A stretch of DNA of 62,693 nucleotides, counting the filler, from Basidiobolus ranarum (lineage: Eukaryota), in NCBI GenBank assembly GCA_040143965.1. It is 36 parts of 36 records of this genome, joined end to end, with 100 filler letters (N's around TTAATTAATTAA, not from the genome) between each part and the next. Parts side by side here need not be neighbours in the genome. Positions count along the whole stretch, not along the records: positions 19,241 to 20,887 come from JASJQH010004635.1; 35 more parts are not named here. One strand, given 5' to 3'. The notes beneath the pieces are model-generated. The model made no database searches, was not told the origin of the DNA, and was given only the letters and a program-made list of their open reading frames with translations. Positions 229 to 58,647 of this stretch are shown in pieces. The first letter of the stretch is position 1. The number at the start of each line of letters is the position of its first letter. A program made the position numbers and the translations under genes.

Positions 229-497
229 GTAATCACGCATGCTAAAATATTGATCTTCAACATGCTTTCTTGAATATCCAGCACTTTTAGGGAAGAACCA
301 CTTTTCAAACAGCACACTACCAGGCTTACTACTTTCAGAATTCAAGTTGTTTTACAAGAATCTCATTGTATTGAGTCCATACTTATTCACATACTTGACT
401 GATCAGTCATTACTCAGCAATATCAATATGCTTTGCCAGCAAACTAAAGGTATCTATATCATTCTGGTCATATAACTGTGGTAACTCCACAGTATTG

Positions 498-1650
498 TCA
501 AGGTAGATTACCACAAATGGATCAAGATGCTCTCTGAAGATGTCATTCATCATGTGTTGACAGACTGCAGGGGCATTGGTAAGTCCAAATGGCATTACAT
601 TGTATTCAAAGTGTCCATAGCAAGTTTGAAAGGCAGTTCTCCATTGGTCTCCAGGTTTGATTCTTACAACATGGCAAGCACTTCTTAGATCAATCTTTGT
701 AAACACCTTGGCTAAAGCAAGCTGATCCAAGAGTGAGTTGATTAATGGCAAGGGGTACCAATTTTTGACTATAATGCTATTTAGGCCTTGATAATCAACA
801 CAGAGACAGAAGGATCCATCCTTTTTCCTAACAAATAGATTGGAGAGCCTGCTGGGGACTTTGAATGTTGAATAAATCCCTTCTCCAGAATTTTGGCAAC
901 ATACTCTTTCAGAATCTTGAGTTCCGGCTGGGTCAGCCCATATATAGGCCCAAATGGTGGTTGTTTTCCTTCTTGTAGATCTATAGGGCAATTATATGGG
1001 CAGTGAGCTGGAAGTATATCAGATTTCTTCTTGTCAAAGACATCAGCAAAGGCTTGGTATTTGGGCGGGAACTTATGATCCATAGGTTTTGTTGGTTTCA
1101 GCTCTTCTGCAATACTGTCAATGGATATTGGCTATATAAATGTTCTTAGGAGTCAGGCTGGTGATGAGTTGGATACTTTGCAGGTTGGCAAGTATGGACT
1201 AGGAGGTGGAGTTTGCTTGAACATTCTAATCTTCTTCCAATTGATTACTGGGTTGTGCTGCATGAGCCACAAGTTACCAAGGATGACTGGGTGGTGAGGT
1301 GAAGAAATGATAATAAAGGCTATTTCTTCTTGATGAGCAATGGACATGAGTGTCATAATGGTTGTCTCATGTGTTACAGCACCTGATGATAGCAGCCTAC
1401 AATCAATTACTTCTACAAGGGCTGGACTAGATTTCTTGATTGTTGGGATAGAGTGGGATTTTACAATGGCAGAGTCAATAAAACAGGAGGAAGCACCTTA
1501 ATCAAGAAGTGCAGTTGTTTTTATTGACTTGGAATTTGGTAGCAGGAGTGTATTAGGCAGCTTAAATGATTCATATGACTGCAGAGATTGCAATGTATGG
1601 TGAAGATAAATTTTTGAAGATGGTTTGCCCAACTGCATGCCCATTATTGC
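498..1650 (-). pseudogene. Ty3/Gypsy protease-reverse transcriptase fragment, decayed
   Basis: ALLD*GASSCFID protease motif; PPFGPIYGL, KKDGSxxLCVDY, YPLPLI, FTKIDL, FEYNVMPFGLTNAP, YLD(N); frameshifts and stops. Confidence 0.95.
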
Positions 1651-8068: not shown

Positions 8069-8647
8069 TTACGCTGCGCACGCAATATGACCATATTCAA
8101 ATTGAACAGAGTAGAGACAGTTATGAGTAAGTAGTTTGCGTAAACGATAATTCGACATTTGATCTCCAGAAGAGGCAGCACGTTGAAACCACACAGCAGC
8201 CTCTTCTAGATTTTGCTCGGCTCCAATTCCTTTCTCAAGGCAATTACCTAGGTGATATTGTGCAGATATATAGCCCTTATTTGCTGCGCGTCTGAACCAG
8301 TACACTGCCGCAGAACTATCTTTTTCTATTCCTTGACCAAGTTGCAAACAAAGACCTAGCTTATCTTGAGCTCTCGGATGATCCTTCTGGGATGCTTTGA
8401 AATACCATTTAACAGCCTCAACTTCGCTTTTATCAATGCCGATTCCATTGGCGTAGCAGTAGCCGATATTACATTGAGCCCATGGATTTCCCTGCTGAGC
8501 GGAACGCATATACCAGTAAACAGCCTGTTTCAAGTCCTGCTTAACACCTAGCCCTTCTTCAAAGCAAAATCCTAGAGAATTTTGTGCAATTATGTTTCCT
8601 TGTTCGGAAGCACAGCGAAACCATCTAACAGCCTCCGAGTCATTGCG
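8069..8647 (-). CDS. Sel1-like repeat protein, C-terminal part
   Basis: Consecutive SLR units A..W...A.QG...AQ..LG.C...G.G; frame stays open to the contig edge; ends GHIACAA*. Confidence 0.92.
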   Translation of the reverse strand, partial: RNDSEAVRWFRCASEQGNIIAQNSLGFCFEEGLGVKQDLKQAVYWYMRSAQQGNPWAQCNIGYCYANGIGIDKSEVEAVKWYFKASQKDHPRAQDKLGLCLQLGQGIEKDSSAAVYWFRRAANKGYISAQYHLGNCLEKGIGAEQNLEEAAVWFQRAASSGDQMSNYRLRKLLTHNCLYSVQFEYGHIACAA

Positions 8648-14359: not shown

Positions 14360-15644
14360 TCCTAACTTAAATCATAATTCTTCAAATTTTGGCTAGGGTA
14401 ATGGCATGGTAAGGATGTCTGCAATCATGTCCTCAGTTAGATAGTACTCTAGTTGGACATGCTTATTCTCAATAGCTTCCCTAACAAAGTGATATTCAAT
14501 GTCAATGTGCTTACTTCTAGCATGAAATTTGGGATTTTTAGCTAAAGAAACACAACTTTAATTATCCTTAAAAATTATGGTTGGTGAACTTTAATAAATG
14601 CTCAAGTCTTTGAACAGTTTCCTTAACTGCATAGCTTCCTTTGTTATATGTGATGCTGCCATGTACTCTGCTTCAGTTGTTGAAAGTGCTACAGTAGGTT
14701 GTTTCTTGCTAATCCAAGATATGGCTACTTCACTATAGAGAAAGATATACCCAGTGATAGATCTTCTGTCCTCAATGTCATGTCCCCAATATGCATCACT
14801 AAACCCAGTTGGATCCTTATTCTCATGAGAATGTGTGTATCTTAAGCCCAGAACAATAGTACCCTTCAAATATCTGAAAATCCACTTAACTCCTGCATAA
14901 TGCTCAGATCCTGGGTTTTGCACATGTTGACTAACTGCTCCCACTGCAAAAGAGATATCTGGCCTAGTTCCAGTAATAGCATGGACTGAACAACCTACCA
15001 TAGATTGTTAAGGGAACTCAGGGCTCTCTAATGACATTTTTTGAGCCATATTTGGCTATTTTCATCATATTTGATGGGATTTTTTACTAGTTTACACCAG
15101 GATCCATGGGAGTTGCTACCGGCTTTCAATTTTCCATCCTGTAATGTCAGAGAATGTCTGAGATGTATTTAGATTGACTCAGAGTAATAGATTTGTGCAA
15201 AATATCTGTATGGATCTGCAGGCCTAAAAAATACGCAAGTTCACCTAGATCAGTTATCTTTAATTGGACTGAGAAGTCTCTTTTGGTGTTCCTGAGAGCT
15301 TCATCATTATTGGTAGCTATAATCAGATCATCTACATATAAGGCAAGTAGCATCTTACTGTCCTTATCTGTCTTAAAGTAGATCCCAAAATCAGCTGTAC
15401 TCTTTTGGAAATCAAGTGATTCCAAGTATGTGTCTATCTTAGTGTACCAGGCCCTGGGTGATTGTTTAAGTCCATAAAATGATATTTGTAGCTTACACAC
15501 ATCCTCAGGGTGCTCCAGATCTACACAACCATCTGGTTGATCCATGAGTATATCCTCTTCCAAGTCCCCATTCAAAAAAGCAGCTTTAACATCCATTTGA
15601 TGGATTTTTAGCTGAATTTTGATGCCACTGCTAGTACAGAACTG
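14360..15644 (-). pseudogene. Copia family A reverse transcriptase and RNase H
   Basis: QMDVKAAFLNG, YGLKQSPRAW, LYVDDL, TRPDI, SKKQPTVALSTTEAEY, SKHIDI. Confidence 0.96.
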
Positions 15645-17392: not shown

Positions 17393-19241
17393 NNNNNNNN
17401 NNNNNNNNNNNNNNNNNNNNNNNNNNNNNNNNNNNNTTAATTAATTAANNNNNNNNNNNNNNNNNNNNNNNNNNNNNNNNNNNNNNNNNNNNCACCCCCC
17501 TGTAACAAAACAAATCAAAATAACTGCGTTCATTACATCACAAAGCAAGGATATTTAGCATGTATATTACTGAAATTTTGTTAAAACGACTTGCTACTCG
17601 AAATCAACCAATAGAGTCCATTGTTTTTTGGAAATTAACAGCAAATCAAATGGATTTGATATCTCTGAGTATACCGGTTATTATTGGCTCCCATGCTAAT
17701 GTAAACAAACCCTTCAACTCCTCATCTATTTAGTTAGTCTGGAACATCATACTCAGCTTTCGGATTGGAGTTTTAAGGCTAAACATAAGTATCTCCTTTC
17801 CTCCATATTGACATGAGAAACTCAATCGTCCGACGTGGGTTGATTGGATTCAATGAAATCTGATGTTTAAATTGGTTTCATACTGGGTTGTTCATTATAT
17901 CATAACAAAGTGAGTAATGTGAGTGATTCTTGAAAAATATGGTATCTGCCAGGACCCATCATAATGATTACCGTAACTATTTTTCGAGAAGCTGTAAATT
18001 GAAAGGAAATAAAAGAAGAGTTTAACACACCAAGATTAACAGGTGCTAAGAGGTGAATGTATTAGCACTAGCACTAATCAAAGTTACAGTATAGATCGTG
18101 AAATTGCTCAGTGGAGCTATTTGGCATATTTCTGAATGAAGTTTACTGGAAAATTAGCTTCTTATTGTGGCATTCATAGCCAATACCAACGACTTACTAC
18201 TGGTAAGTCAATGTAGTAATTCTATTATTCATATGACATTCAGTTCAGTCCATACTTGTGAGATTTGGAAGGCAATTAGTCTTGCATATTCACTTGATAA
18301 TTCCATATCACAGTAACTAGAAGGTGCAATGTCATTAATAGAAGTGAAGAAATCATTACAAGTACCTAGAAAACAAAGGGGTTCCCTTAATTTGATGTAC
18401 GTGATCAATTCATCGGAACATGTAAGGAAATGCAGTGAACTACGCCATAGAGTAAGAATGGAAAACGACTTACAAGGATAAATTGAATTACCTGTGGTAC
18501 AATGGTTGAAATTTTTTTGAGGTTCCAACATTCAATGGTGATCTTAGGTGGACCAAACCAGTTGACTATGTCAACAACGAACTTGTGAATGCTCATGCAA
18601 GTTGGTTAGTCAAGGGAAATTCGTGAAAATTAATTTCTGAATCATAGTTTCATTACAAGATGGATGTTTGATTGTCACTCATTATCGAGATGTACAAGTA
18701 GTGTCTAATTTTAGAATCCAATATCAATATCGAGTGGATGGATATAATACAATCAAATCTTCGTTTATGAGGAAATTCAAATCTTACGAATTATTAAATG
18801 CTATTTTTAAATTTGAAGTGAAACAATTTATATCAAATATTTTTAACCCTATTTGCAATAGGTGCCATTAAAGAGATAACCAGCGGTAAGACCGAAATTT
18901 GTGAGGGCCATTCCCTATATATATTGGGATTTTTGAAGTAGGACAAAGGTAAATGTATAGATAGATATTCATGGAATACAAAGTTATAGTGAACTGACTG
19001 GGATAGTCAGGTACAATCGAAGGGAGATGTGTATGAGAGCGGGCATACGATATGGATGATATAATGTACGTACAGTAGTGGTATTGAAAGCAGCTACACA
19101 CACAGGGTGAAAATCTATTAAAAAACCAATACTAGCAAATNNNNNNNNNNNNNNNNNNNNNNNNNNNNNNNNNNNNNNNNNNNNTTAATTAATTAANNNN
19201 NNNNNNNNNNNNNNNNNNNNNNNNNNNNNNNNNNNNNNNNT

Positions 19242-19526
19242 ACGGAGTGGTGGGGTGATGCTCGCACCTGGCCCAACAGTGCCCGCAATGTCAACGGATG
19301 GGTTGTCTCTAGTCAACCACGCGTTCCCTCCATCATTGTCATTCAGCCAGGGTATCAAGGCTGCGGATCAACTGGTCATGTCGCCGTTGTAGAGCGTATA
19401 AATAATGATGGAAGCGTGTACACCAGCAACTGGAACTACAAGTTCAACGGACAAGGTGGAGTTTATTCTACATCCTATGGAAACTTCAATACTGGCAGTG
19501 GAATATCCTTCCTCTGGCATCAGTAG
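19242..19526 (+). CDS. CHAP-domain protein, C-terminal half (copy 1)
   Basis: TEWWGDARTWPNSA...PSIIVIQPGYQGCGSTGHVAVVERINNDGSVYTSNWN...FLWHQ*; GHVAVVE is the CHAP catalytic His motif. Not in the supplied ORF track. Confidence 0.9.
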   Translation, partial: TEWWGDARTWPNSARNVNGWVVSSQPRVPSIIVIQPGYQGCGSTGHVAVVERINNDGSVYTSNWNYKFNGQGGVYSTSYGNFNTGSGISFLWHQ

Positions 19527-20568
19527 AGCCATCGTTAAAGCCTAAAAGAAATCCAGAATAGACAAACTATCTGCTGTGCAGATTTTAAACTTCATGTTCA
19601 ATGAGCGCAAATAAAAAACCTTCTACTCATAAAAACTACATGGAATCAAATTGCGAATGTTTAAAATTTCCGATCAATTTTGTCTAGTTTCAAGGGGTTT
19701 TATGTCATTAAGATATATTTCCAAATTTTATCAATCTACATTTCTAGCTTACTCTCAGATTATCCAACTATTTGCTACCTGCTAGTACAATGAAAACGTG
19801 GCGGATCGAAAATGTCTAATCTAGATTAGTTTTATCCATATAGAGATTTAGTGCATTATGATCAAATTTATTTGAATCGATCAGTAACTTTGTGGAGGAA
19901 CATGTTCGACGTATTAGATGTTCTTATTTGATACAAAACTATAAAATAACCCTAGTTTATGAAACTTAAGCCTTTTAGTCAGAATGGTAAAGTGTTCTAT
20001 TGACTCATTTATGATACTATGATAAATTGGATTTTTTCATTAGTAGGATTGGACATATGGATCGGGACCTAGGAAGTCATAGGCTGAATAAGACACATTG
20101 TTTTCTATTCGCAAACACTGATTTTTATCTGAGAAAACCCCAAAAAGTCAACTTTCAGCTCATGGAAGCAAATCATTGTTAATGGTAATAGCACACAACT
20201 TAAACTCGCCAAGATTAGATTTTGCGTTAATACTAACTCCAATTCCGTAATAGTTACAACCTCCAGTGAAGAATCAACCACTTGTATAATCAAACTTACT
20301 GAACTGGTCAGCTCACAATTAACGTAATTGGTTTATTTCTTATCACGCCTTATCCTTTCACAAATCGCTTGTTGAAGTCACATCAAATTGATTCTTGATT
20401 CGCTCAAATACACTGTCAATAGATGAAACTTGGAGTATTGGTAACCATAGAAGCTCCTTTTGTGACTCCCGCAGTCCTAGAATCTTTAAGAATGGAAAAT
20501 GGTGGATTGGGATCTTGGAGTCACTTTGAACGATTGCCAACACACGTGGGGAGAGGAGACAGGAGAAA

Positions 20569-20578
20569 TATATAAAAG
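20569..20578 (+). promoter_or_regulatory. TATA box of the CHAP gene
   Basis: TATATAAAAG 77 bp upstream of ATG 20646. Confidence 0.6.
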
Positions 20579-20645
20579 CTGGAGTAGAAGTTCAGTTACA
20601 AAACAGTACTAACTTACTATTAGAAACTTACTACTAAATATCAGA

Positions 20646-20887
20646 ATGGTCAATCTTACATCTGCTTTATCTTGCGTGTTCCTCGCAGCCGCCACTTTCA
20701 TGGCCTCTTCCGTTAATGCCCTACCAACTCACAATACAGTTGCTGCTCCTAGTTCCTTAAACCAAACTGAGGTAGTTAGCACATCCAGTAAACTCGCTAA
20801 TATCAGCGTGCTGGCCTCTTGCTCTCGCAGCTTCCGCTTCAACAATGGCCAATGTACCGACTGGGCTGATGCCCGCTACTATGAGCT
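20646..20887 (+). CDS. Secreted CHAP-domain protein, N-terminal half (copy 2)
   Basis: Signal peptide MVNLTSALSCVFLAAATFMASSVNA, Ser/Thr-rich linker, then FNNGQCTDWADARYYE carrying the CHAP catalytic Cys motif GQCT. Confidence 0.88.
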
Positions 20888-22733: not shown

Positions 22734-24379
22734 CTTCTTTAGTGATGTCTTCTAGACATCATAGGGCCAGGTTTTTCTGGGTAGGCTTCATGAAACTCCT
22801 GGCAAAGTTCCTTGGAATTGGAAAGATTTGATGCTGGCTCCCATGATTGATCATTTGTTGAGTATCCTTTCCAATCCACCATATTTTGCAACTTACATCA
22901 ATAAATTCTAGAATCTAGGATTTTGCTAACTTCATAATCAGGGTGTTCTTCCACCTGGATTGCTGGGGGTGGGGCAATGGATTGGCCCTGGAAGGTGTTT
23001 CTGGCATGTGGCTCTAAGAGAGACACATGGAATACATTGTGGACTTTGAAATGGCCTGGGAGTTCAAAGCAGAAGGCTACTGAATTGATTTGCTTAATAA
23101 TATAAAAGGCCCTAGTCTTTTATGTTCAAGTTTATCACAAGGTCTAGTGGTTTCAATATTTTTCCAGAGTAGCCAAACATAAGCTCCTGGCTTGAGATCT
23201 GGGCTAAGCTTTCTTTTCTTATCAGCAAAGTTCTTGTACTTGGATTGAGCATGTTCCAACTTGGATATTAACTGTTTATGGATGTCCTTAAGGAAAGTGG
23301 TGTGGTCTGAGGCAGCAGGGCAAGGTAGATTGGATAGTGGGTGAATTGAGAAACAAGGATGGTATCCATAATTTGCAAAGAAAGGAGTTTGCTTTGTAGA
23401 GGTTTGATAAGAGGTGTTGTAAGCAAATTCAGCAAGAGGCAAGAGTTGTGTCCAATTAACCTGATTATAGTTGATAGTGCATTGTAAATATTGTTCCAAT
23501 ACTTGATTAACTCTGTCTGTTTGGCCATCAGATTGGGGATGGAAGGCAGTGGAGAGATTGGCTGACATACCCAAGGTATGGAGGAGGCTTTTCCAGAATT
23601 TGGAAGCAAACTGAGGTCCTTGGTCAGAGATGATAGTTTCAGAGAGTCCATGTATATGGATGATGTTTTGAGTTACCAATTCTGCTGTATATTTTGCATC
23701 AATTGACTTGTTGTAGGGCACAAAGTGAGCCATCTTTGTTAGATGGTCAACAATTACCAGAATTGAATCATATTTGGCAGACATGGGTAGATCAGTTATG
23801 AAATCCAGTGATATGGATTTCCACTGTTGATCAGGAATTGGAAGTGGCTGCAGGAGGCCATAGGGCTGATGTCTTGGAGTCTTCACTCAAGCACAAGTAT
23901 CACAGGTGGAAACATAAGTCTTGACAAATGCAAACATTTTGGGCCACCAATAATCCCTGGATACCAACATATATAATTTGGCAACACCAAAGTGTCCTGC
24001 CAGTGGCTTGTCATGTCTTTCCTGCATGATTTTGAGTCTAGAAGTGTGGTCTGGAATGTAAACTTGCATCTTGTAAAACAAAAGATCATCAATGATAGAG
24101 AAATGGCGGTACAGGTTGAAGCTGGAGAGGTCTTTGGGTGTTTCCTGCTCATTCTTGATTGATATTACCAATGCATCTTCAGATTGGAGTTTGCAGAAGT
24201 CTTCATGGAATGTGCTTGAACTAGGAAGAGAAGGGGCAGTTGCACTAATTTGAAGTTGGTGGGGCTTGAGTAAGGAAGTATTTTGTTGGCCAAAGGCCTC
24301 ATCCCCTTCTTTAGGCTGATATTCTGCTCTACATGATAAGGCATCAGGCTTTCCTTGCTGGCTACCTGGTCAATATGTA
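22734..24379 (-). pseudogene. Ty3/Gypsy chromovirus family 1 integrase and chromodomain
   Basis: HDKPLAGHFG...YWWP...CDTC zinc finger, ISLDFITDLP, SDQGPQF, HPQSDGQT, LGPF, then ILDSR...VDWKGY...SWEPASNL. Confidence 0.96.
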
Positions 24380-36696: not shown

Positions 36697-38337
36697 AAAG
36701 TTGCTCTAGCAGCTTCTCCGGCATCAACTGGATTCTCCTTTGCCAGTAAACCAGCTGACTCACCAGAAGTTACTCCGGCATCTACTGGATTTTCTTTTGC
36801 CAGCAAGGCAGCTGACTCCTCAAAAACTTCTCCGGTATCCACTGGATCTCCTTCAACCACTAAGCCAGTCGAGTCCCCAACAACTACTCCAGCATCCGCT
36901 GGATTCTCATTTGCTACTAAGCCAGCTGATTCATCAGCAGCTCCTCCAGCGTCAACTGGGTTTTCCTTTGCTAGTAAGCCAACTGACTCTCCAGTAACTT
37001 CCCCAGCATCAACTGGATTCTCCTTTGCCAGTAAACCAGCTGACTCACCAGAAGTTGCTCCAGCATCTACTGGATTTTCTTTTGCTAGTAAGCCAACTGA
37101 CTCCTCAAAAACTTCTCCGGTATCCACTGGATCTTCTTCAACCACTAAGCCAGTCGAGTCCACAACAACTGCTCCAGCATCCACTGGATTCTCGTTTGCT
37201 ACTAAGCCAGCTGATTCATCAGCAGCTCCTCCAGCGTCAACTGGGTTTTCCTTCGCTAGTAAGCCAACTGACTCCTCAGCGGCTTCTCCAGCATCTACTG
37301 GATTCTCCTTTGCCAGTAAACCAGCTAACTCACCAGAAGTTACTCCGGCATCTACTGGATTTTCTTTTGCCAGCAAGCCAGTCGATACTTCGTCTGAAGT
37401 GAGCGCCAATGCCGCTGTAGAAGAACCTGTAGGATCCTATACAACTGTTAATAAAGCTGATTCAATCACCGAAGTTGAATGTTTGCCGGAAAAGGATGGT
37501 AGTGCGGATAACTCAAAGAAATTGGAGATAGCAGGTAACTCCGAAGTTGAATCCAAGCAATTTAATGTAAATAGAGTGGAGTTCAGCAATTCAGAAGATA
37601 AAATAGAGACAAAGCCACTTGCTGCTTCGCCAACATTCACTACACAAGACATAGAAAAAACTGAGAACAGTATCTTACCCGTAGCACCTACTACGAGCCT
37701 TCTTGAATCTGTTTCAGATAACGAGAATCAAGATGGAACGAAAGAAACTGCCAACTTTTCCAGCGACATGTACGCAGAAAAAGAAGAGGTCAGTGACGAT
37801 AGCATGATGTCCGACGAAGATTCACCACAAGATGCTTTGAATCTGGACAGTATCAATATTTGTGAGCCAACTAGAGATGAAAAGACTTCACCAGCCTTTG
37901 GTATAGGGAATGCGATATTTGGATCGACATTTACTTCTTCTACTCCAACATCGAATACCTTCGGCTCTAGTACTGCTGCACCCGCCTTTGGTTCGACTAC
38001 GTCATTTGGCTCTGCTACACCAACTAGTAAGCCATCGACTTTTGGCCTTAGTACTGCTACACCCGCCTTTGGCTCAACTACATCATTTGGTTCTGCTACA
38101 TCCCTCACCTCTCCTTCTAGTACTCCGACTTTCGGGTCGACTACTTTTGGCTCTACCGCTCCTGCCTTTAGTTCTGTCACACCTAGTGCACCAGCCTTCG
38201 GCTCATCTACTCCTCTTGGATCAAATGTGTCTACTTTTGGGACTAGCAGTTCTTTCGGATCTAGTACACCTACCTTTGGTTCTAACACTTCCTTTGGGAC
38301 AGCAGCACCTGCATTTGGCTCTACCACTACTATAGGT
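36697..38337 (+). CDS. FG-repeat nucleoporin, internal fragment (Nup159/Nup214- or Nup1/Nup153-like)
   Basis: One frame open across the whole contig: 19-aa PASTGFSFASKP repeats, acidic spacer, then PAFG/TFG/SFG repeats. Confidence 0.8.
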
Positions 38338-54611: not shown

Positions 54612-55743
54612 ATGGGAGATATCTTGCAAGCTCTTACCCAGCTTCAGTAAGAAAATCAAGAACTTTGTGCTTCTCTTGCTCCAGTAGAGAATCCAGCTCC
54701 ACCCAACTATCCTGCTAATCCAACTCCTGAACCCAAGATCTCCTTATCAAATAAGTTTGATGGCACTTGCCAAAACTATTGTGGATTTATCAACCAAGTA
54801 AAGCTCATCATCCAGTTACATCCCCATTGCTACCCCTCTGACTAAACAAAAGTAGGCTTAGGGGGAACACTATCATCAGGAACAGCTCTATCTAGGTATG
54901 CTCCTTTGACGCAAAGTCAATCTGAACTTATTTCAAACTTCCTTGCCTCTCTTACTGAATTGGAAGCCACATTTGGAAGTGCAGATAAGGAAAGAACTTC
55001 AGCCACCAAGCTCCATGCACTTAAACAAGGGTCAAACCCAGCATCAACTTATGCTGCAGAAATCTGCCTTCTTGCCTGTGATCTCAATTGGGGAGAATCT
55101 GCCCTGATCAACCAATTCCAATATGGACTCCAAGAAAGCATTAAGGATCTTTTACTAACCATGGCTGACCCAGTAACCTTGACTGATGCTATCCATCAGG
55201 TAGTAAAATGTGACAACTGGTTGTTTCAAAGACAACAACACAGAAATATGGCTCCTTTCTCCTCTCCTTCCTCATCTACTATCAGACCTCCCTTCCATCA
55301 AACACAACATACAGCTCTAGCAGATAACACAATGCAAATTGAAGGAACTTGCTTCAAAAGCTTAGCCCTGAGTAGAAATATCAAGGCCAACAAGAGAATC
55401 TATGCCTCTATTGTGGAGCTCCTGGACATGTAGCAAAAACCTATCCAAAAAGAAATCCTGGATTTAAGATCAACAATACCCAAGTATGAGAACTCTTCCC
55501 AGCCAGTGGAAAACTTCGATGCCCAGCTGCAATAATGGGTATGCAGTTGGGCCAATCATCTTCAAAAATGTTTCTTCACCATACATTGCAATCTCTGGAG
55601 TCTTCTCAATCATTAAAGCTGTGCATTACACTCCTACTACCAAATTCCAAGACAATACAAACAACTGCACTTCTTGATTCAGGTGCTTCCTCCTGATTTA
55701 TTGACTCTGCCTTTGTAAAATCCCACTCTATCCCAACAATCAA
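54612..55743 (+). pseudogene. Ty3/Gypsy family 1 gag and protease
   Basis: PEPKI..KFDG, LKQG...S.YA.E, F.YGL...IKD.L, LCLYCG..GH, ALLDSGAS; overlaps the reverse complement of 1435-1650. Confidence 0.93.
55508..55552 (+). promoter_or_regulatory. Candidate -1 ribosomal frameshift signal
   Basis: G GAA AAC, 6-nt spacer, 11-bp stem GCCCAGCTGCA/TGCAGTTGGGC; the -1 frame runs into the protease DSG motif. Confidence 0.6.
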
Positions 55744-57482: not shown

Positions 57483-57721
57483 NNNNNNNNNNNNNNNNNN
57501 NNNNNNNNNNNNNNNNNNNNNNNNNNTTAATTAATTAANNNNNNNNNNNNNNNNNNNNNNNNNNNNNNNNNNNNNNNNNNNNGCTGATGCAGTTTATTAT
57601 ATAATTTCCCTGCAATTACACATAATTGAAATAGTTAGGATATTAAATGCAAACAGAAATTTTATTATACAGAATGTAGGGATTTTTACCATGATAATTG
57701 AAATTCTTAGATAAATAACTC

Positions 57722-58647
57722 ATGCATGCCATATCAGTCACTATCATGTCAACTCAATACAAGATTAATATCATGCTCTCCATTGACTCTAAATGGTCAT
57801 TCCTCATTAATTCAAAAGCAACTACTGGCTTTCCTATCACCACCCTAGAAGCTATATTTGAGAAATACTGTGGCTCATATACTCCATTACCTACCAGAAA
57901 GCGGCTAGTCAATTTGTTTTGTTACTACAGAAACTATTGTCCAATCAGATTTTGGTGCACTATTAATGGTAGCAAAAGTGGGAGAAGCTTCCATACCAGG
58001 CTTAAGAATTCTCTAGCTTCAGTGATGAATGATGTTGAAGGTGCCTGGGACAAAAGATTTAGAGACTCTAGTTTCCTTCCGTTTCCTGGAGTATTTCCCA
58101 ATAGAGTTCATATCAGAAGTATTTCTAACACATTTCCTGTAAGAATTAACAGGCCTAAAAGCAATCAAAAGCCATTCTATTCTAGCAAGTACAAAGCCCA
58201 CTGTGTAAAGTTCCAGGCTTTGAAAGATTTGGAAGGAAACATCATTTGGTTTAGGGGGCAACATCCAGGGAGACACCCTCACAAAAGGCTTTGGGTTGAG
58301 AGGCATGCACCATTTGTAAGATATGAGAAGACTATGGCTGCTTTGGCATATGTTGGGGAAGAATGCAGAAGGCTATGATGTGTCACAGCTAACAAGAGGC
58401 CCACAGGAGGGATACTCACAGAGAGGCAAGTGCTTTATAATGACATTTTTTCCCATTTTAGAGCAAGAGTATAACATAGCTTTGGTTTTCTAAAGAGATA
58501 TAACATTGTAGCAAGAAAGTACAAAGGAAAATCACTTTGTGAGACTCAATCAAAGTTAGGCAAAGTCATCAAAATCTTGATTAATTCTCAATACATTCAT
58601 ACTCAAAGATGTCCATTGCGAGCTCTAGACTTACGACACTATGAATA
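57722..58647 (+). pseudogene. DDE_Tnp_4-type transposase (IS5/ISL2/PIF-Harbinger-like), inactivated
   Basis: (N)TFPVRINRP...FYS.K.K.H..KFQ...D.EG.I...PG; MA(A)LAYVG; KRP.GG.L...Q..YN......RARV*H.FG.LK. One frame with two in-frame stops. Confidence 0.85.

Follow-up and report, generated by a model that had tools for sequence, protein, structure and literature searches.

A contig of 1647 nucleotides (nt) from the genome assembly of Basidiobolus ranarum (GCA_040143965.1) probably bridges the gap between two head-to-tail genes encoding CHAP domain proteins, each gene being about 540 nt long and intronless, with a start-to-start distance of about 1,659 nt. The contig is likely to be nuclear DNA of a Basidiobolus that is closely related to, yet distinct from, B. 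meristosporus CBS 931.73. The genes would belong to a Basidiobolus-specific family of small, putatively secreted CHAP enzymes, most likely acquired once from a Ktedonobacteria-like bacterium and then multiplied, with a predicted role in cutting bacterial walls. The probability of this explanation, taken as a whole, is estimated at about 0.72. The contig occupies positions 19241..20887 of the window, which is the whole stretch of DNA analyzed (62,693 nt). The window consists of 36 separate contigs strung together in order of size, from 1650 down to 1636 nt, with N44-TTAATTAATTAA-N44 spacers between them, and thus features adjacent in the window are not genomic neighbours. The contig described here is a whole assembly contig with such a spacer on either side, and the evidence for the locus consists of these 1647 bases and the sequences of their relatives.

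Organization of the Two Partial Genes

The 3' part of a CHAP gene, designated as gene A, is located at 19242..19526 on the + strand. It includes 94 codons (19242-19523) and a TAG stop codon at 19524-19526. The translation, TEWWGDARTW...GHVAVVERINNDGSVYTSNWNY...SFLWHQ, contains the motifs WWGDARTW, GHVAVVE, and TSNWN, and the catalytic His is encoded by CAT at 19377-19379 within GHVAVVE. The gene A half matches the Pfam CHAP profile PF05257 (MEROPS C51) with the e-value 9.2e-12 and 45.7 bits, above the curated cut-off of 26 bits, and the match covers profile positions 24-80 of 81. As it begins at profile position 24, the first quarter of the CHAP domain is missing from this half. The closest homolog is the B. 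meristosporus protein K493DRAFT_368928 (P0003), whose residues 86-179 are 92.6% identical to the gene A half.

The 5' part of a second gene, gene B, is located on the same (+) strand. It starts with the ATG at 20646 and runs off the contig end at 20887, including 80 codons. The start codon is in a Kozak-like context, cagaATGg, with A at -3 and G at +4. The encoded half consists of a hydrophobic N-terminus and a linker, followed by SCSRSFRFNNGQCTDWADARYYE, and it includes GQCTDWADARYYE. The hydrophobic N-terminus, MVNLTSALSCVFLAAATFMASSVNA (20646..20720), is predicted to be a signal peptide with cleavage expected before LP. The cleavage site was placed by the familiar -3/-1 rule, as VNA precedes the conserved LP, and the alignment revealed an ALP motif past the hydrophobic stretch that is common to the paralogues. 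The linker and the start of the CHAP domain occupy 20721..20887, and two sequons, NQT and NIS, are found in the linker. The catalytic Cys is encoded by TGT at 20853-20855 within GQCTDW, and the last complete codons of the contig encode YYE, followed by two bases of a Leu codon. The gene B half alone showed no Pfam match, and the alignment with full-length homologs indicated that it supplies the missing first part of the CHAP domain. Its identity to P0003 residues 1-81 is 69%, with a tblastn e-value of 2.7e-32. When P0003 was compared with the whole window by tblastn, two sites only were recognized, with e-values of 2e-57 and 3e-32, and the three other matches had e-values of 0.03 or above.

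Genes A and B are thus arranged head to tail, 1,119 nt apart. The spacer between them (19527..20645, + strand) is AT-rich, with a GC content of 34% versus about 50% in the coding parts. The spacer contains no open reading frame longer than 62 aa, the Rfam search of the contig (19241-20887) gave no match at e-values up to 1, and the repeat search on the contig detected two weak 30-nt pairs only and nothing notable in the spacer. A hexamer AATAAA at 19610..19615 (+), 84 nt past the stop codon of gene A, resembles a polyadenylation signal and may act as one. A TATA-box-like element, TATATAAAAG at 20569..20578 (+), with TATATAA at 20569, lies 68-77 nt upstream of the ATG of gene B and is a candidate promoter element.

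Alignment with the 179-aa homolog shows that 12 nt are missing between the end of the contig and its start: the third base of the Leu codon, three codons, and two bases of a His codon. The three missing codons correspond to Thr-Cys-Gln in the nearest homolog. The sum of 80 + 1 + 4 + 94 residues is 179, exactly the length of the homolog, and therefore no intron is present in the covered parts. The period is likewise calculated as 1647 + 12 = 1659 nt, or about 1.66 kb. Much of this organization had been proposed in an earlier note made on the window without database searches. Translation, Pfam, and tblastn confirmed its description of a C-terminal half first and an N-terminal half last on one strand. 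The CHAP assignment, the period near 1.66 kb, the TATA box, the absence of visible introns, and, as a prediction, the signal peptide were also borne out. The extent of the contig was as described there except for its start, which is 19241, one base earlier than 19242.

Copy Number and the 12-nt Break

Both halves share P0003 as the best paralogue, which assigns the genes on either side of the spacer to the P0003 type. The two halves accordingly represent one protein type, as the earlier note had supposed, rather than unrelated proteins. The lower identity of the N-terminal half (69%) than of the C-terminal half (93%) is accounted for by the divergence of N-termini in this family: P0006 and P0007, an orthologue pair from B. 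meristosporus and B. ranarum, are 95% identical in the domain and 48% identical in the first 60 residues.

The 12 missing bases span a single variable residue (Q, W, K, Y, or H among the paralogues) in the nearly invariant segment ADARYY(E/Q)LTC-x-HT-x-WWGDA. If copies with common flanks differ at this site, the short-read assembly graph would branch there, judging from the behavior of assemblers. Such a branch would cut both genes at one place and leave a gap instead of an overlap.

The presence of at least two copies at the locus is inferred from one contig, and the alternative is that near-identical repeat units were collapsed in the assembly. In that case, the contig would be one collapsed unit of an array of at least three near-identical 1,659-nt repeats and not the bridge between two diverged neighbours. 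The best match of both halves to the same B. meristosporus paralogue, the contig ends that abut in frame with only 12 nt missing, and the occurrence of up to three CHAP genes per contig in the relatives are all compatible with a collapsed array. A perfect repeat, however, would normally be expected to yield contig ends that overlap, and here 12 nt are missing instead. In addition, the contig matched only itself when compared by blastn with the window, which samples a small part of the assembly, and no second copy of any part of it was detected. A collapsed array is regarded as unlikely, although it keeps an appreciable share of the probability.

The head-to-tail layout could also be an artefact, arising from a chimeric contig or from false circularisation of one gene, in an assembly that is very fragmented (36 contigs of about 1.64 kb in the window) and for a family that is repetitive. 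The 1,119-nt spacer is unique and continuous, and a chimeric contig is therefore unlikely. Consecutive locus tags of B. ranarum independently point to CHAP genes that are adjacent and probably on the same strand. Simple circularisation of a single gene was rejected, since the contig ends leave a 12-nt gap rather than an overlap. Altogether, an artefact is very improbable, and two head-to-tail genes remain the preferred interpretation.

Fungal Origin of the Contig

CHAP domains occur chiefly in bacteria and phages, the gene lacks introns, and no other gene is present on the contig, all of which would suit a bacterial contaminant in the fungal assembly. The similarity contradicts this. The best matches are Basidiobolus proteins with up to 93% identity, encoded on contigs of up to 160 kb, whereas the best bacterial protein is 63% identical over the C-terminal half and the best bacterial genome locus is 61% identical over the CHAP domain. 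The architecture is the fungal one, with a signal peptide, the domain, and a CTDWADARY signature, and not the bacterial transmembrane form of roughly 320 aa. The 1.1-kb spacer with 34% GC, TATA, and AATAAA is also unlike the bacterial tandem pairs, in which the start-to-start distance is roughly 1.1-1.8 kb. Bacterial contamination is effectively refuted by the Basidiobolus matches, the lower bacterial identity, and the different bacterial architecture, and its remaining probability is negligible. The eukaryotic host assumed in the earlier note is thus upheld by the Basidiobolus matches and by the AT-rich spacer with its TATA, Kozak, and AATAAA elements.

The CHAP Family in Basidiobolus

In the search with the C-terminal half as a query, the 18 best of 83 significant proteins were all from Basidiobolus, and one more was found just below them. 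Seventeen named Basidiobolus proteins were obtained in this search, of which B. meristosporus CBS 931.73 accounts for 11 and B. ranarum for 6. Further searches added 6 and 5, respectively, giving at least 17 and 11 named paralogues. The orthologues from the two species are deposited under the automatic name "Peptidase C51 domain-containing protein", which corresponds to CHAP. The best match is P0003 of 179 aa, with 93% identity to the C-terminal half. A HMMER search against 1.84 billion representatives retrieved 955 proteins at e-values up to 1e-3 and 14 at e-values up to 1e-30, and the signature FRFxNGQCTDWADARY is common to the top proteins, which is designated as the fungal signature. No eukaryote besides Basidiobolus was recognized among the organism-named matches of three word-based searches. 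The fungal signature was not found in 241 million metagenome records: the protein scan gave 166 pattern matches, none of which is a relative, and the scan with a degenerate DNA pattern for GQCTDWADARY gave 0 matches.

P0003 and its Basidiobolus paralogues have the same architecture as the window protein, the best of them with the same length of 179 aa, 93% identity in the C-terminal half, and 69% in the N-terminal half; P0003 falls into one clade with it (support 99/92) and shares three extra cysteines. The deposited proteins differ in that they come from another species or strain and in that the two neighbouring copies of the window are known as halves only.

Several paralogues very probably share a contig. 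Shared contigs were judged from identical contig sizes in the database table, and by this measure P0003 and P0004 are very probably on one contig (160,813 nt), as are P0005, P0008, and P0009 (122,520 nt), P0011 and P0227 (176,536 nt), and P0093 and P0225 (145,671 nt). In B. meristosporus, the CHAP orthologues are found on contigs of 120-270 kb. In B. ranarum, P0089, P0018, and P0020 are very probably on one contig (19,377 nt) and have the consecutive tags K7432_005993, 005994, and 005995. In the phylogenetic tree, P0005, P0008, and P0009 form one clade with the B. ranarum protein P0231 (100/99), and P0018 and P0020 group together (95/92). The shared contigs and the tree groupings together indicate that local duplication is a habit of the CHAP family in Basidiobolus, which fits the contig in the window. 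With its 17 and 11 named paralogues, the family is amplified as the earlier note had proposed.

A subclade of 11 proteins (P0003-P0013, including that of the window) has three cysteines that are seen neither in the other fungal paralogues nor in bacteria. One is in xCS, ahead of the domain, and the others are in LTC and QGC; the three are together present in 11/11 proteins and together absent elsewhere, save a lone Cys in P0087. The LTC codon of the window gene falls in the 12 missing bases. It is a reasonable guess that the extra cysteines form a stabilising disulfide.

Some members are irregular. In P0092, Tyr replaces the catalytic His, and P0095 does not have the Cys-bearing start of the domain; these may be decaying copies or faulty gene models. 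The protein number of P0004, K493DRAFT_349802, is two away from 349800, a nonribosomal peptide synthetase (NRPS) listed as a bacterial-transfer candidate in Table 3 of Tabima et al. 2020 (PMC7466969). If protein numbers follow the scaffold order, the P0004 gene adjoins another transferred gene.

Relatives in Ktedonobacteria and the Origin of the Family

Ktedonobacteria are filamentous soil Chloroflexota, and the closest relatives of the fungal CHAP proteins outside fungi come from this group. All of the organism-named bacterial matches (6/6) are from Chloroflexota: Ktedonobacteraceae, Thermogemmatispora, Ktedonobacteria brp13, and Tengunoibacter. A scan of one genome per prokaryotic species revealed 215 relatives, and the best 69 loci are all from Ktedonobacteria or from other or unclassified Chloroflexota; identity is 40-61% when the whole matched segment is counted and 48-61% within the CHAP domain. 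Three non-fungal proteins from the exhaustive search, in which no pattern was used (P0096, P0097, and P0111), group with the Ktedonobacterial loci in the trees. The earlier note's proposal of a bacterial-type origin is therefore consistent with the nearest non-fungal relatives, which are all Ktedonobacteria or other Chloroflexota where they are named.

The Ktedonobacterial proteins, annotated as CHAP "surface antigen" in Thermogemmatispora, Ktedonobacter, Dictyobacter, and Tengunoibacter, are similar to the fungal proteins from F..GQCT to the C-terminal VSFVWH. They are longer, however (about 270-410 aa), and ahead of the domain they have an extended N-terminal region and a hydrophobic membrane segment; the CTDWADARY signature and the extra cysteines are both absent from them. 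Two further bacterial proteins, P0103 and P0104, have the same CHAP subfamily fused to other parts, unlike the Ktedonobacterial architecture. The N-terminal region of P0103 resembles a lytic transglycosylase by eye, and P0103 and P0104 share a C-terminal region ending in hydrophobic stretches.

Phylogenetic relationships were analyzed with 73 rows and 119 columns. Fungi contributed 34 rows, a 72% identity filter reduced the bacteria from 86 rows to 28, and of the 20 more distant representatives, 11 were used. P0095 was excluded from this tree because of its faulty gene model. All 34 fungal rows constitute one clade with the support of 100/99 and a branch of 0.67. The window protein belongs to a 5-row clade with P0003, P0004, P0006, and P0007 (99/92). 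A quick tree with 134 rows reproduced the fungal clade (28 rows), with a Shimodaira-Hasegawa-like approximate likelihood ratio test (SH-aLRT) value of 99. The closest outside relatives are bacterial, the named eukaryotic matches are limited to Basidiobolus, and the fungal proteins are a single clade; the simplest inference from the protein sequences is that a Ktedonobacteria-like donor contributed the gene in one transfer, though this is not proven.

Tandem CHAP genes are frequent in Ktedonobacteria as well. At 22 of the 69 loci, a second or third CHAP gene is located on the same strand within 2 kb, as pairs or triplets; examples are locus L001 (457-792 and 2001-2336) and locus L012 (831-1181, 2184-2510, and 3550-3876). 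The tandem partners are outside the fungal clade and are distributed among different subclades of the bacteria, suggesting an old bacterial duplication. The fungal copies, in contrast, are in one clade, and thus the fungal arrays arose after the split. Inheritance of the fungal tandem layout from the bacterial tandem pairs was considered and dropped for this reason.

Vertical descent of an ancient fungal CHAP family, lost everywhere but in Basidiobolus, would be compatible with a tree that is unrooted. Against it are the named matches from no other eukaryote in the three word-based searches, the 48-61% identity in the CHAP domain to one bacterial class, which is high for so old a split, the genes without introns, and the fungal signature being missing from the metagenome records. 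Vertical inheritance was rejected on the grounds of the Basidiobolus-only named matches, the high identity to one bacterial class, and the intronless genes, and its probability is very low indeed.

Under transfer from bacteria, a single entry into the Basidiobolus lineage is most likely, with a Ktedonobacteria-like donor. The N-terminal part that is cytoplasmic and transmembrane in the bacteria would then have been lost, and a eukaryotic signal peptide and promoter gained. The gene would subsequently have multiplied in Basidiobolus, largely through local tandem duplication.

Predicted Fold and Function

Each gene is predicted to encode a signal peptide, then a short linker of variable sequence and a single CHAP domain, in which the Cys-His pair and the Glu and Asn residues behind it are kept as far as the translated halves and the alignment reveal. 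The catalytic residues are split in the contig: Cys is on gene B, while His, Glu, and Asn are on gene A. The columns of the catalytic Cys and His are invariant in the 83-sequence alignment. Among 33 fungal rows, Cys70 is conserved in 32/33, His131 in 32/33, Glu136 in 33/33, and Asn150 in 33/33, and all of those visible are kept in the window halves. The exceptions are P0095, whose model is doubtful, and P0092 with Tyr for His. Polar residues downstream of the His are Glu at +5 and Asn at +17 and +19 (TSNWN), and the invariant Asn150 and Glu136 are candidates for the third member of the triad.

The fold was examined on the AlphaFold model of the 93%-identical orthologue P0003 (83-sequence alignment), not on the split window protein. 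In this model, 112 residues have a predicted local distance difference test (pLDDT) score of 90 or above, and residues 70-179 are above 90 by 10-residue blocks. The model shows a lone helix at residues 9-18, disorder at 21-52, and a compact domain from about residue 60, in agreement with the papain-like alpha+beta fold of CHAP proteins. The sequence search against PDB detected CHAP chains with e-values of 5e-7 to 1e-4, such as 2k3a (5e-7) and 5t1q (2e-6). The structure-based search with Foldseek against PDB ranked highest the Staphylococcus aureus amidase 5t1q (2e-6), followed by the phi812 hub CHAP (9eum), Staphylococcus saprophyticus 2k3a, a tail tip protein of phage Andhra, and CHAPK of LysK (4csh). 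The staphylococcal autolysins and phage lysins 5t1q, 2k3a, 9eum, and 4csh share the fold and the Cys/His positions with the fungal protein at Foldseek e-values of 2e-6 to 3e-4. They differ from it in that the identity is only 18-29% and in that they carry wall-binding or other modules, whereas the fungal domain is alone. The window protein has Asn 17 positions past the His, where 2k3a has Glu.

From these similarities, the protein is expected to hydrolyze peptide or amide bonds in the peptidoglycan of bacteria. Its N-terminal segment looks like a eukaryotic signal peptide, which suggests secretion. A secreted peptidoglycan amidase or endopeptidase would cut bacterial walls around the fungus, which is also found in soil, for competition or for feeding. 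Basidiobolus inhabits amphibian and reptile guts, dung, and litter, according to passages in PMC7466969 and PMC9391592.

The protein might instead be secreted but not attack walls, acting on another amide or peptide substrate or serving as a non-catalytic or host-directed factor. The CHAP superfamily includes glutathionylspermidine amidase, to which Foldseek found weak similarity (3a2z and 2io9), P0092 has Tyr for the catalytic His, and the lytic role of the family is a prediction. The catalytic residues are nevertheless kept in 32/33 fungal rows, the closest structures by both sequence and fold are all staphylococcal or phage peptidoglycan hydrolases, and the bacterial relatives are extracytoplasmic and membrane-anchored, like wall enzymes. 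A non-lytic function is thus considered clearly less probable than a lytic one, with a minor share of the probability.

Points Weighing against the Interpretation

Several aspects weaken the interpretation of two head-to-tail fungal genes for a peptidoglycan hydrolase acquired from Ktedonobacteria. No second, unrelated fungal gene is located on the contig, and integration into the fungal genome is indicated by the large contigs of the orthologues and by the eukaryote-like spacer. The cause of the 12-nt break is deduced from how assemblers behave, not from reads. The restriction to Basidiobolus refers to named matches, and the fungal-type proteins P0086, P0090, P0091, P0092, P0094, and P0095 stand outside them.

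With respect to the donor, the peptide patterns for the genome scan were derived from this CHAP subfamily and favor finds in Ktedonobacteria. The fungal clade is placed among Ktedonobacterial lineages, but the support for its sister branch is 36/20, that of the backbone ranges from 36/20 to 73/0, and the tree is unrooted. The phylogeny that the earlier note had suggested as a check thus gave a single fungal clade among Ktedonobacteria and not a supported nesting within a bacterial clade. The more distant representatives are also inside the Ktedonobacterial diversity, and therefore the donor and the direction of transfer are not proven. With respect to function, the CHAP domains include non-lytic amidases, such as glutathionylspermidine amidase (3a2z, with a weak Foldseek e-value of 5e-3), and expression, secretion, and activity are predictions here.

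Comparison with Published Systems and Significance

Secreted CHAP proteins are also reported from an oomycete. Jiang et al. 2013 (PMC3681718), in a passage on Saprolegnia parasitica, ascribe 7 secreted CHAP genes to bacterial transfer and repeated duplication. That family is similar to the one in Basidiobolus in being secreted in a eukaryote, thought to be bacterial in origin, and duplicated repeatedly. It is different in that its host belongs to another eukaryotic kingdom and the transfer was presumably independent; the two were likened by the published description, not by sequence.

The tick protein Dae2, "domesticated amidase effector", is described in a preprint as a domesticated bacterial amidase used against skin bacteria (bioRxiv 10.1101/2020.04.10.036376). 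It parallels the model proposed here, in which a gene for a bacterial wall amidase would be taken up by a eukaryote and its product secreted against bacteria. The host of Dae2 is an animal, and its activity was experimentally shown, while that of the Basidiobolus CHAP protein is predicted. Dae2 is said to be derived from the Tae effectors of type VI secretion and not from this CHAP subfamily.

Bacterial genes in Basidiobolus have been surveyed. Tabima et al. 2020 (PMC7466969) report an apparent bacterial origin for 2-5% of Basidiobolus genes, of which 61% are intronless. The main text of that paper names Proteobacteria, Firmicutes, Actinobacteria, and Bacteroidetes as donors, and it does not mention CHAP, peptidoglycan, or Chloroflexi, save one NRPS-like gene of "GNS bacteria". 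In the library searched, "CHAP domain" and "Basidiobolus" did not occur together in any paper, and a term search of zygomycete secretome and family-expansion papers gave no mention of the CHAP domain. The earlier note's view of an undescribed system is overstated, as the orthologues are annotated as Peptidase C51 and both the bacterial transfers in Basidiobolus and the secreted CHAP expansion in Saprolegnia, the latter in the passage cited above, are published. The kind of event is already known; for this particular family, including its size, arrays, and likely donor, there appears to be no published account yet.

A broader scenario can be drawn tentatively, with somewhat less than an even chance of being correct. 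In it, Basidiobolus took a single wall-remodelling CHAP gene from Ktedonobacteria, swapped the anchor for a secretion signal, and built a tandem-arrayed, linker-diversified bacteriolytic arsenal of at least 17 paralogues, among the largest lytic sets of eukaryotes, in which a young subclade gained three cysteines. If this is true, a fungus dwelling in guts and dung could kill or eat different bacteria. If active, the proteins would offer a large natural collection of compact peptidoglycan hydrolases, each with one domain and adapted to a eukaryote. They could then help to investigate the competition of fungi with bacteria in animal guts, or their feeding on them, and could provide lysin-like enzymes for eukaryotic secretion hosts.

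The family would be a clean example of a bacterial gene that switched its targeting signal and then expanded in tandem, in a fungus known for heavy uptake of bacterial genes. It does not open a new kind of biology. It points to Ktedonobacteria, a donor group that is not highlighted in the main text of the survey by Tabima et al. 2020 (PMC7466969).

Other Contigs in the Window

Other contigs in the window contain domains of Ty1/copia and Ty3/gypsy retroelements according to Pfam. Fragments of mobile elements, namely RVT_1, RVT_2 (copia-type), an integrase core with an H2C2 zinc domain (gypsy-type), a retrotransposon gag, and a DDE_Tnp_4 transposase, are distributed over 410-991 (-), 15147-15644 (-), 23077-24369 (-), 54846-55433 (+), and 57719-58378 (+). 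Four Sel1 repeats were recognized in an open frame at 8069-8647 (-), with the Pfam e-value 6e-46. This content of retroelements, transposase, and Sel1 repeats is the appearance of a fragmented eukaryotic draft assembly, and the retroelement domains also speak for a fungal host. At 36697-38337 (+), an open frame of 547 codons without a Pfam match fills a whole contig; the GC content is unusually high (46%), and the opposite strand likewise has long open frames.

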